Below are positions 1 to 25,061 of a stretch of DNA of 25,061 nucleotides, one piece after another. A model generated the notes under the pieces. It searched no databases. It had not been told where the DNA came from and saw nothing but the letters and a program-made list of their open reading frames with translations. A program made the position numbers and the translations under genes. The DNA is from a virus. Taxonomy: Duplodnaviria; Caudoviricetes. The stretch's first letter is position 1, and every line of letters starts with the position of its first letter. Where the stretch lies: the IMG/VR virus record IMGVR_UViG_3300031836_000045, positions 1 to 25,061 of that record; one strand, given 5' to 3'.

Positions 1-47
1 TAGCGACAACCGATCGTGCACTTCACATCGGTGAAGGTCACAAAAGC

Positions 48-72
48 AAAAACCCTTCCCCGATGGGAAGGG
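48..72 (-). terminator. Intrinsic terminator downstream of the tRNA 3' end (host side of the att junction)
   Basis: Minus strand reads CCCTTCCC-ATCG-GGGAAGGG-TTTTT: a perfect 8-bp stem (53-60/65-72) plus U-tract (48-52), about 20 nt past the tRNA-fragment 3' end. Confidence 0.85.
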
Positions 73-91
73 GCCGTGGCCATGATGTTGA

Positions 92-126
92 GTGCGCCCG
101 GAGGGATTCGAACCCCCAACCTTCTG
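92..126 (-). other. Prophage att core = displaced 3' half of tRNA-Arg(ACG); not an intact tRNA
   Basis: Reverse complement CAGAAGGTT-GGGGG-TTCGAAT-CCCTC-CGGGCGC-AC gives the anticodon-stem 3' strand, variable loop, T-arm and acceptor 3' strand, matching the actinobacterial tRNA-Arg(ACG) 3' half as I recall it. There is no anticodon loop, D-arm or 5' acceptor strand beyond 126. It lies next to an integrase. Confidence 0.9.
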
Positions 127-271
127 GTTAGTGGCCAGTGAGCACGGATCAACCGTCACCAGGCGCGCCGCCAGCATGGCTGTGCATCCTGTCGACCTCG
201 ACGGGATCCGCCGTAAGAAGACTGCGGTGACACGCATCCAACGCGGCCGCACCGTGAGGGACGCAGCATGA
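92..271 (+). pseudogene. Orphaned 3' end of the att-spanning gene (inferred phage repressor C-terminal tail)
   Basis: Open frame from the first base of the att core: VRPEGFEPPTFWLVASEHGSTVTRRAASMAVHPVDLDGIRRKKTAVTRIQRGRTVRDAA*. Its TGA (269-271) overlaps the ATG at 268. An in-frame TGA at 89-91 lies on the host side. Confidence 0.7.
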
Positions 272-558
272 GTCTCACCGGAGAATGCAGCCCGCGCTTG
301 CTGGACAGGCTTTGCCTCGACGCGATCACCTACGCACTCAACGCACCGACGCTCACAATTGTCCAAGACATCGAGGACTACACCGCTTACCGTCTCCTCG
401 ACCAGGCCGAGCGCTTTGGGGCAGTCGCTGCGGTCACTATCGCCAGAGCAAGCGCTTCAGCGTCACGCATGCGCAAGCAGGAACTGCTTGACCTCGCCAT
501 CATTTCGAAGCTGACCACCCTCCCGCGTTGTCCACAGGTCGGCGAGGTGTCGGCGTGA
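268..558 (+). CDS. Hypothetical 96-aa protein between repressor tail and integrase
   Basis: GAGGG SD at 256-260; ATGA overlap upstream and GTGA overlap (555-558) with the integrase frame; third positions mostly G/C. Confidence 0.65.
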   Translation: MSLTGECSPRLLDRLCLDAITYALNAPTLTIVQDIEDYTAYRLLDQAERFGAVAAVTIARASASASRMRKQELLDLAIISKLTTLPRCPQVGEVSA

Positions 559-1430
559 AAGGCCTGGCACGGGTTTATATTTTGCCTATGGCCCGCCCCG
601 TTCCCGGGGCGTGGGGGGCAACGTTGGCCAACTGGACTGCGTACCTTCGCGCTGCCGGTCACCCCTCTACGACTATTCGCACGCGCCTGGATCATCTGTC
701 GCGGCTGGCCCGGATTTCTGGTGTGGAGGATCCGTGGGAAATCACCACCAACGACTTGATCTCATGGACCGGCCAACAGGAGTGGGCGGCCGAGACACGG
801 CGCAGCGTGCGCAACAGTCTGCTCGCGTTCTACCGGTGGGGCATCCTCGCCGGGCACGTGACCGCTTCTCCGGCAGAAGCACTCCCCCGGATCAAGGCGT
901 CCGAACCACACCCGCGGCCGGTGCCCTACGGGGTGTACCTCGAGGCACTCGCCCGGTCCGATGCCCGCACCACCCTCATCCTGCGCACCGCGGCAGAGGC
1001 GGGACTACGCCGCACTGAGATCTCCAAGATCCACGAGCGCGACCTCATCCCCGACCTCGCCGGCTACTCACTGAACGTGCACGGCAAGGGCGGCAAGCAA
1101 CGCATCGTCCCCCTGAACGACTCGCTCGCGCGTGCCATCCGCGAAGCGTGCCTCACCGGCCGCGGCTTCGCTTTCCCTGGAGATCGCGACGGACACCTGT
1201 CCGGTGAATACGTCGGCAAGCTCGCAACCCGGGCACTCCCCGGCGACTGGACCCTACACAAGCTGCGCCACTCCTTCGCGACAGACCTGCTCGGTATCGG
1301 CACCGACCTGCTCACCATCCAGCAGCTGCTCGGCCACGCGTCCGTGGCCACCACCCAGCGCTACACCCTGCCCCCCGACCACGCGAAGCGCGCCGCCATC
1401 ATCGCCCTGCACCAGCGCCGGATCGCATAG
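555..1430 (+). CDS. int: Tyrosine integrase, short XerC/D-like type without arm-binding domain
   Basis: Catalytic motifs GLRRTEI (R), GKGGKQR (K), HKLRH (HxxR), LLGH (H), TTQRY (Y). Start is either GTG 555 (SD GAGGTG 544-549) or ATG 588 (leaderless candidate). Confidence 0.95.
   Translation: MKGLARVYILPMARPVPGAWGATLANWTAYLRAAGHPSTTIRTRLDHLSRLARISGVEDPWEITTNDLISWTGQQEWAAETRRSVRNSLLAFYRWGILAGHVTASPAEALPRIKASEPHPRPVPYGVYLEALARSDARTTLILRTAAEAGLRRTEISKIHERDLIPDLAGYSLNVHGKGGKQRIVPLNDSLARAIREACLTGRGFAFPGDRDGHLSGEYVGKLATRALPGDWTLHKLRHSFATDLLGIGTDLLTIQQLLGHASVATTQRYTLPPDHAKRAAIIALHQRRIA
576..581 (+). promoter_or_regulatory. Candidate -10 hexamer (TATATT) for a leaderless integrase transcript starting at ATG 588
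   Basis: TANNNT hexamer in an AT-rich patch, 6 nt before an in-frame ATG. No clear -35. Confidence 0.45.
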
Positions 1431-1452: not shown

Positions 1453-1731
1453 CTAGCTGTAGCAGCCTGCGTCAGTCAGCTTCCCGTTGATGTAGTCCAT
1501 GAGCTCTACGTTGCCGTGACCGGTGCGCTCACGGGTCGAGCCGTTGTTCTGATCGGCAACATCAAACTGCTCCTGCAGCGCGGCACAGTCCGAGTCATCG
1601 GCATACCCATCGATCTTCGACTTGAGCGTCGAGTCATAGTCGTCCCAGGCCACGGACGAATTGGGCACGTCAGACGAACCGCACCCCGCCACCAGTAGTG
1701 CAACTGCCACGACAACCCCTAAGCGCTTCAT
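1453..1731 (-). CDS. Small lipoprotein (moron; superinfection-exclusion candidate)
   Basis: MKR, hydrophobic stretch, lipobox LVAG-C. The mature part is acidic with two further Cys. It sits between int and the lysis cassette. Confidence 0.85.
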   Translation of the reverse strand: MKRLGVVVAVALLVAGCGSSDVPNSSVAWDDYDSTLKSKIDGYADDSDCAALQEQFDVADQNNGSTRERTGHGNVELMDYINGKLTDAGCYS

Positions 1732-24254: not shown

Positions 24255-24460
24255 CGTGACTCCACCTCGAGTCCGTGGTCGCTGATCCACTGGTCGACGG
24301 CGCGCGAGAAAGACCGACTGAACGTCTCCACGAGTGCATCGGTGTTCTTTGCGGTCTCGCGCACCTTGGGGCACGGCTCGCTAGCGAGTGACTTCGCGAT
24401 GGTTGCACCGCAGCCATGGCAGTCGGTGGTCGCGAGCGCGGTGTTGGGTGGGCGTCTCAT
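24251..24460 (-). CDS. Small hypothetical protein with CxxC
   Basis: ATG 24460 in ATGA overlap; CHGC...PCP; its stop overlaps the next ATG. Confidence 0.65.
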   Translation of the reverse strand: MRRPPNTALATTDCHGCGATIAKSLASEPCPKVRETAKNTDALVETFSRSFSRAVDQWISDHGLEVESR

Positions 24461-25061
24461 GCTGCTACCTGCTCGGTGGTCTCGAGGAGTGCGTCGACGT
24501 CGAAGAGCAGCAGTGCCGCGTGGTGGGTGTCTAGGTATTGGACGGACTGGGGGGCGCGACGGATCCCGATCTGGGCGAGTGTCACGTCGCATTCGGCCAC
24601 GTCTTCGAGCCACAGGGCCACGGGGTTAGGTGCGTCTTTGATGTACGCGATCGCGTCGTCACCGCCGGCGAGTTCTTGAACTCCGCGCGGATACCAGTCG
24701 CCCATGGGGGAGGTGGTCTTGATGCTTGCGATCGCGACGATGCGTTGGGTGGGTGCGGTCTCGTAGATCGCGATGTGTGTGGTGTCAGCGCGTAGGGGTC
24801 GGCGGCGCAGCTCGACGGTCTTGGTGCCGTCGAGGATGGCCTGTGACCAACGAGGGTGGAGGGGCAGCAGGGCGATCCTCATGGTGGCAGCGACACCACG
24901 TGCGGCATCGTGGCGGTGGGTGACGTCGGCAACCAACGCTTCGTGGGCGTCACGGAACGCGGCGAGAGTGTAGGTAGCGTAGCGGGCACCGAGCGGGCCG
25001 TGGTCCTCGAGCATCTCCCGGGCCAGCGTGTTCGCGAGGTCCTGCCAGGCGGTGCTGGGGG
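24457..25061 (-). CDS. ASCH-domain protein, 5'-partial (ASCH domain from about 24882; frame open to the window edge)
   Basis: LLPLHPRWSQAILDGTKTVELRRR...IYETAP...IVA...APQS ASCH motifs. The upstream in-frame sequence is stop-free with high GC3. Confidence 0.8.
   Translation of the reverse strand, partial: PSTAWQDLANTLAREMLEDHGPLGARYATYTLAAFRDAHEALVADVTHRHDAARGVAATMRIALLPLHPRWSQAILDGTKTVELRRRPLRADTTHIAIYETAPTQRIVAIASIKTTSPMGDWYPRGVQELAGGDDAIAYIKDAPNPVALWLEDVAECDVTLAQIGIRRAPQSVQYLDTHHAALLLFDVDALLETTEQVAA

Follow-up and report, generated by a model that had tools for sequence, protein, structure and literature searches.

A Repressor-Gene Remnant at the attR Site of a tRNA-Arg(ACG) Prophage, Likely Part of a BPs-Type Integration-Dependent Switch

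Organization of the Prophage End

The window, that is, the whole stretch of 25,061 nt that was analysed, opens with host chromosomal DNA (positions 1 to 91) located downstream of a tRNA-Arg(ACG) attB site and ending in a stop codon at 89-91. An intrinsic-terminator-like hairpin with a T run (53-72, minus strand) lies on this host side behind the tRNA 3' end and was identified by a consensus match only. No sigma-70-like promoter was found in 1-1800 with a consensus that is weak for actinobacteria. The flank is followed by the common att core (92-126, minus strand), present here in its attR copy and corresponding to the last ~35 nt of tRNA-Arg(ACG), as judged from the Rfam tRNA match, the identity to the BPs attP and the tRNA continuation found in runs X2 and X4. 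Read on the plus strand, the core opens a frame of 59 codons (92-271), which starts with VRPEGFEPPTFW and finishes with TVRDAA and a stop; its residues 1-11 are core-encoded. A sequence-only reading of this DNA had pointed out such an open frame running from the core to an RDAA end, and the translation of 92-271 confirmed it. Because a TGA stands in frame at 89-91, directly 5' of the GTG at 92, there is no read-through into the frame from the left.

The stop of this frame (269-271) shares bases with the ATG (268) that starts a 96-aa helical ORF (268-558, plus strand), and the stop of the latter overlaps the start of the integrase gene (stop/start pairs 271/268 and 558/555), all three being co-oriented. 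It had been proposed that the stop of the frame is coupled to the next gene, and the two do meet, the next gene being the 96-aa ORF and the integrase starting only at GTG 555. The integrase (555-1430, plus strand) is a tyrosine integrase of small size and of the BPs/Brujita type: the 291-aa protein matches PF00589, ends in -RRIA, leaves no space for an arm-binding domain and shows 45% identity to BPs gp32 across residues 11-284. The C-terminus is -RRIA, and not -AA, in the window phage and in its two sisters L008 and L009 described below, among which the dN/dS of Int is 0.06-0.08 (small samples).

The remainder of the window (1453-25061, minus strand) is a partial siphophage-like prophage with holin, amidase, tail, tape measure, capsid, portal, terminase and right-arm genes. 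The contig ends before the immunity region, and the window's own attL and repressor are absent from it: no second core copy was found across the window, which is the whole record, and no repressor match was obtained within it. Between int and the holin gene, a 92-aa lipoprotein-like ORF (1453-1731, minus strand) has a signal peptide with LLVAGC and no family match in Pfam or PHROGs; its position is typical of lysogenic-conversion or exclusion genes. The right arm encodes an ASCH-domain protein (24457-25014, minus strand; match at the cut-off).

The Core and the Host-Made Stop Codon

The minus strand of 93-166 scored 26.5 bits as a tRNA in Rfam (gathering score 29 bits), with a good match confined to the 3' part, and ARAGORN found no complete tRNA in the window. 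Over 36 bp, positions 91-126 match the attP annotated within BPs gene 33 without a difference. The likeness to the host tRNA stops at 126, which is the boundary, after the TG of TTC TGG, that had been drawn from the letters of the window. Core-bearing contigs of runs X2 and X4 then read A TCC GTA GTC AGA, the antisense of the tRNA-Arg(ACG) anticodon arm, and this continuation turns codon 125-127 from TGG into TGA. The antisense of tRNA-Arg(ACG) had been expected to supply TTC TGA TCC GTA, and these contigs, which cover only the core and may come from organisms other than the window's host, give exactly that A. The host is presumably an actinobacterial species, met in brine metagenome runs.

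Compared with the sister locus L009, the window shows 3 mismatches in the 91 nt of host flank and identity throughout 92-146. The L009 flank continues into host-type genes; one related member of the L008 cluster carries the name aldose 1-epimerase. Window-type and L009-type prophages are found behind one host flank (window 1-146; L009:4313-4458), with pieces of both in run X1, and this common flank together with the presence of both pieces in X1 indicates that related phages use one attB in one host.

Both Repressor Forms Are Found in Sister Prophages

The closest relatives by integrase are the loci L008 (Int 92% identical) and L009 (94%). In both, the order is core, tail of 60 or 59 codons ending in -KDAA, homologue of the 96-aa ORF and int, and the tail of the window is 60-61% identical to theirs. 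L008 is identical over 5873 bp to the start of a complete provirus, G002, whose Int is 92% identical to that of the window. The far end of G002 carries a cro-like HTH_17 gene (E 3e-8) and a divergent HTH_3 gene. In G002/L006, the HTH_3 gene continues into the core without a change of frame and terminates at TTC TGA; an HTH ORF at the far prophage end, in the core frame and ending in EPPTF at this stop, had been predicted and is thus seen in close relatives. In the immunity region of this sister prophage, a HIRAN-domain gene adjoins cro (L006:115-858). Searching with the G002 repressor yielded 6 proteins out of 16 candidates, and 5 of the 6 end at the core-encoded EPPTF. The repressors P0005 and P0006 have this end.

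P0005 (100 aa) is 47% identical to BPs gp33 over 91 columns. A longer protein of the same cluster, P0027 (148 aa, ending in -KDAA), consists of P0005 plus exactly 48 residues, and these are the tail of L009. The two proteins are a natural pair of an L009-type sister and differ by the 48 aa that had been predicted for the long form. The window frame 92-271 (plus strand), with its -RDAA end, has its C-terminal counterpart in this L009-type repressor P0027, and we annotate it as a repressor 3' remnant. For P0005, for an 84-aa ORF of L009 and for a protein of the L009 flank alike, the longest contig measures 99,436 bp.

The two prophage ends were also found joined. In run X3, one 5010-bp contig (depth 24) carries in order the 3' end of cro, the end of the repressor, the core, an L009-type tail and int, with 78 nt (26 codons) between the last aligned repressor codon and the core; it was taken as one record across two analyses by its length, depth and matching coordinates. 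On its gene order, this contig is the joined attP form. The sequence-only reading had called for attP to be rebuilt by joining the ends, with an HTH ORF running into the core, and the contig offers such a join in natural, L009-type form. The L009 prophage is recorded as G001, which is cut off before the immunity region and is without the core. When longer proteins were searched with the tail alignment, a cluster G repressor was the sole match among the best 8000 candidates scored, no viral loci were found for P0027, P0030 or P0003, and the genome-contig searches gave no match with the Int alignment and no match with the host flank plus core.

These records bear on two other readings of 92-271, as a frame open by chance on the antisense of a tRNA fragment and as a small gene standing alone. 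A run of 48 open codons occurs at 42% of positions in the six frames of three related phage records, so that in such GC-rich phages the openness of the frame carries little weight alone, and the L009 remnant was called by the gene caller as a 46-aa protein (P0026). However, in P0027, a natural HTH protein, and in BPs gp33 the same frame encodes the C-terminus, and the GTG that would start a stand-alone gene is core sequence with a stop just before it. P0027 and the X3 contig already contradict both versions, to which we attach next to no probability.

Since the window's own attL and repressor are absent from the contig, the case for a split repressor rests on sisters with 92-94% identical Int. 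The remnant and the core are in the window itself; the host-made stop, the two protein forms and the attP join are seen in the sisters, and we infer that the window's own far end is built like theirs. The window prophage could be mosaic or decayed, with a far end that has no matching repressor, and its tail would then be a relic. The three sister genomes are indeed mosaic (65-96% identity in patches), the far end is outside the contig, and in run X1 the window tail piece has a depth of 11.5 against 787 for the L009-type piece, depth being no measure of the share of cells. Nevertheless, none of the tail, the 96-aa ORF and Int is interrupted, the three are coupled, and a second repressor of the P0005 type exists, one without a link to the window: P0006 has 100 aa, is 79% identical to P0005 and has the same linker and core-encoded end. 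We regard a relic as very unlikely.

Conservation of the Tail and Survey of Core-Bearing Loci

Residues 1-23 of the remnant weakly match cluster G repressors, including BPs gp33 (77 of the 79 matches are Mycobacterium phage records; E about 1). Over the last 28 codons of the tail, dN/dS is 0.34-0.39 in three pairs (three sisters; small samples). Over the whole post-core part (47 codons) it is 0.41-0.79, again in small samples, the N-terminal half of the tail being poorly conserved. An AA ending is rare in such genomes, since it closes only 25 of 2133 stop-to-stop stretches (1.2%) in three related phage records.

A degenerate core pattern led to 92 viral loci, 12 of them with short flanks, and to 98 core matches, 97 in these loci and one in the window. 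The core continues into the tRNA in 31 matches, lies at a record end in 22 and runs into phage DNA in 45. The TGA stop is present in all 31 tRNA-continuing matches because they were sorted that way, and it is not evidence. With a seven-repressor profile, which misses other repressor families, an in-frame HTH was found before the core in 8/31 tRNA-continuing, 17/22 record-end and 17/44 phage-DNA matches. The 45 matches that enter phage DNA represent 36 distinct tails, of which 29 are 20-100 aa long; the remaining seven were kept outside the AA count, six because their stop comes within 14 codons, at 11-14 aa, and one because it is an Int fusion (311 aa). An AA ending is found in 19 of the 29 tails, compared with the background of 1.2%, and an A ending in 25, the counted tails being related and not independent events. 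AA-ending integrases behind the tRNA-Arg(ACG) core account for 7 of 22 distinct ones. This core thus serves many unrelated actinophage repressors likewise.

The survey helps to weigh a different role for the tail, in which the repressor is split but the tail alters its activity, through a basic stretch that affects DNA binding, oligomer state or RNA-polymerase contact, and does not lead to its degradation. The conserved half is rich in Arg and Lys and exceeds the length required for a degron, and PMC4557955 raises two possibilities for BPs, mixed tetramers and an activating role of the tail. However, tails that are otherwise unrelated end in AA more often than in anything else, and in BPs both forms bind DNA alike while A135E stabilises the long form (PMC4557955). 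A change of activity appears improbable to us, and a tail that marks the long form for degradation is the reading that we prefer.

A Likely BPs-Type Integration-Dependent Switch

We conclude that 92-271 is very likely the 3' remnant of a repressor gene, located at attR after integration into tRNA-Arg(ACG) and belonging to what is likely a switch of the BPs type, with the 48-residue -DAA tail as a predicted Clp-type tag. In the free phage, attP would lie inside the repressor gene, and the long form made there (about 148 aa in a sister) would be unstable and, by analogy with BPs, degraded via its AA end. The repressor gene, the 96-aa gene and int would be expressed as one operon, coupled through the stop/start overlaps. 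Upon integration, the first host base after the core would become the third position of the Trp codon and change TGG into TGA. At attL, the resulting 100-aa HTH repressor, of the type seen in the sisters, would be stable, would repress the divergent cro-like lytic promoter and may thereby confer immunity, and at attR the tail, the 96-aa gene and int would be severed from the repressor promoter and from translational coupling. The interpretation put forward in the sequence-only reading, in which integration itself works the switch, is supported in that every prediction that could be tested on sequence held in close relatives.

The BPs-type switch is established from work in BPs, where its mechanism was tested (PMC3694055, PMC4557955, PMC9262239). 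The cited papers (PMC3694055, PMC4557955, PMC9262239, PMC8092301, PMC9934374) describe a tRNA-Arg core of 35 bp, a stop codon whose third base is the first one of the host, and an -AA remnant at attR. BPs belongs to cluster G and encodes Int (gp32), Rep (gp33) and Cro (gp34); it has the tRNA-Arg site, the core and the reading frame in common with the window. The comparison with BPs in the sequence-only reading, with attP inside the repressor gene, was well placed, the tRNA being the same, the core identical over 36 bp and the frame that of gp33. In the sister G002, as in BPs, the repressor gene has a divergent cro-like gene (HTH_17) beside it, and the X3 contig carries cro too; for the window, this region falls outside the contig. 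The cassette faces lysis and structural genes, as it does in BPs. Several details differ. The stop-forming codon is Cys in BPs (PMC9262239) and Trp here, although the first host base falls at the third position in both; the tail is 48 aa long and ends in -DAA here, compared with 33 aa and -KAS in BPs; and rep overlaps int directly in BPs, whereas here the 96-aa gene lies in between. Int has 291 aa and ends in -IA here, and BPs Int has 398 aa as annotated. The window phage is otherwise unrelated to BPs.

Comparable arrangements are described for the Mycobacterium abscessus prophages MabB, C, H, K, N and O, with a truncated repressor at attL, whose stop arises from the first bacterial base, and an -AA 3' remnant at attR (PMC8092301, PMC9934374). 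In these prophages transcription of the tRNA runs toward the repressor, and int adjoins rep or is 3 to 5 genes away (PMC8092301, PMC9934374). Several of their integrases are without ssrA-like ends, and genes in such an intervening position have been reported before (PMC8092301). The Mab prophages lose 20-35 residues and the window phage 48; unlike them, the latter has a single coupled gene in the interval, whose family found no match elsewhere. Like the simple (arm-less) tyrosine recombinases named IntBrujita (PMC8138268), the integrase of the window consists of a core-binding and a catalytic domain only, has about 290 aa and comes from a temperate actinophage; its likeness to BPs gp32 and its length would place it in that subgroup. 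The mechanism, the tRNA site and the core sequence are already known from BPs, and the present case is an ordinary further example of them. It adds an environmental example in which both natural repressor forms are recorded for a sister phage.

The 96-aa Gene between the Tail and the Integrase

Homologues of the 96-aa ORF were found only in L008, L009, P0003 and, more distantly, P0030. The ORF has no match in Pfam, PHROGs or phage records, and its best score in the Atlas was 0.86, to unnamed clusters, and gave no hit. Its structural model is all helix and of low confidence (pLDDT 63, pTM 0.38), with no fold match at E <= 0.001. The dN/dS of the ORF is 0.34-0.58 (three sisters; small samples). 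The repeat proteins P0029 and P0031 were considered as homologues and dropped, since their matches were short and repeated. The ORF was also considered as a frameshifted N-terminus of Int. This was rejected, since the L009 copy ends 157 nt 5' of the Int start and a GGCGAGG motif stands 5' of the Int GTG in the window, L008 and L009.

In five other loci (L045, L059, L073, L089, and L096), ORFs of 78-89 aa start inside the repressor stop codon, in a GCATGAG context as in the window, and precede the integrase. These five ORFs do not match the 96-aa family (best E 0.11), and this suits a cargo slot equally. Together they describe a recurring gene slot between the repressor stop and the integrase. 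There is a small chance that the 96-aa gene is a fourth part of the switch, expressed from the attP state only and tuning the integrase as a directionality factor or a protease competitor; cargo is the more likely role. If true, the gene would be the control element that the arm-less integration-dependent switch was thought to lack. A product that steers the integrase would also bear on how prophages without an RDF are induced, a standing question in PMC3694055.

Further Observations on the Surveyed Loci

At L052, where 3 bases are known 5' of the core, the core frame runs into the integrase with no stop (311 aa), so that attP would encode a repressor fused to the integrase, provided that the frame is also open on the upstream side. 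The tails of L028, L058, L037, L075, L032, L070, L051 and L072 end 0-3 codons past the core despite phage-like DNA beyond, and those of L028, L058 and L037 resemble frameshifted versions of longer AA-ending tails.

The repressor-linker DNA encodes a strong hairpin on the opposite strand (L006:1440-1536, minus strand; z -3.8), placed where the rebuilt tRNA needs a terminator. When the 70 nt before the core were compared across 37 repressor-bearing loci, using mononucleotide shuffles, z was below -2 in 18/37 linkers versus 3/37 control stretches taken within genes.
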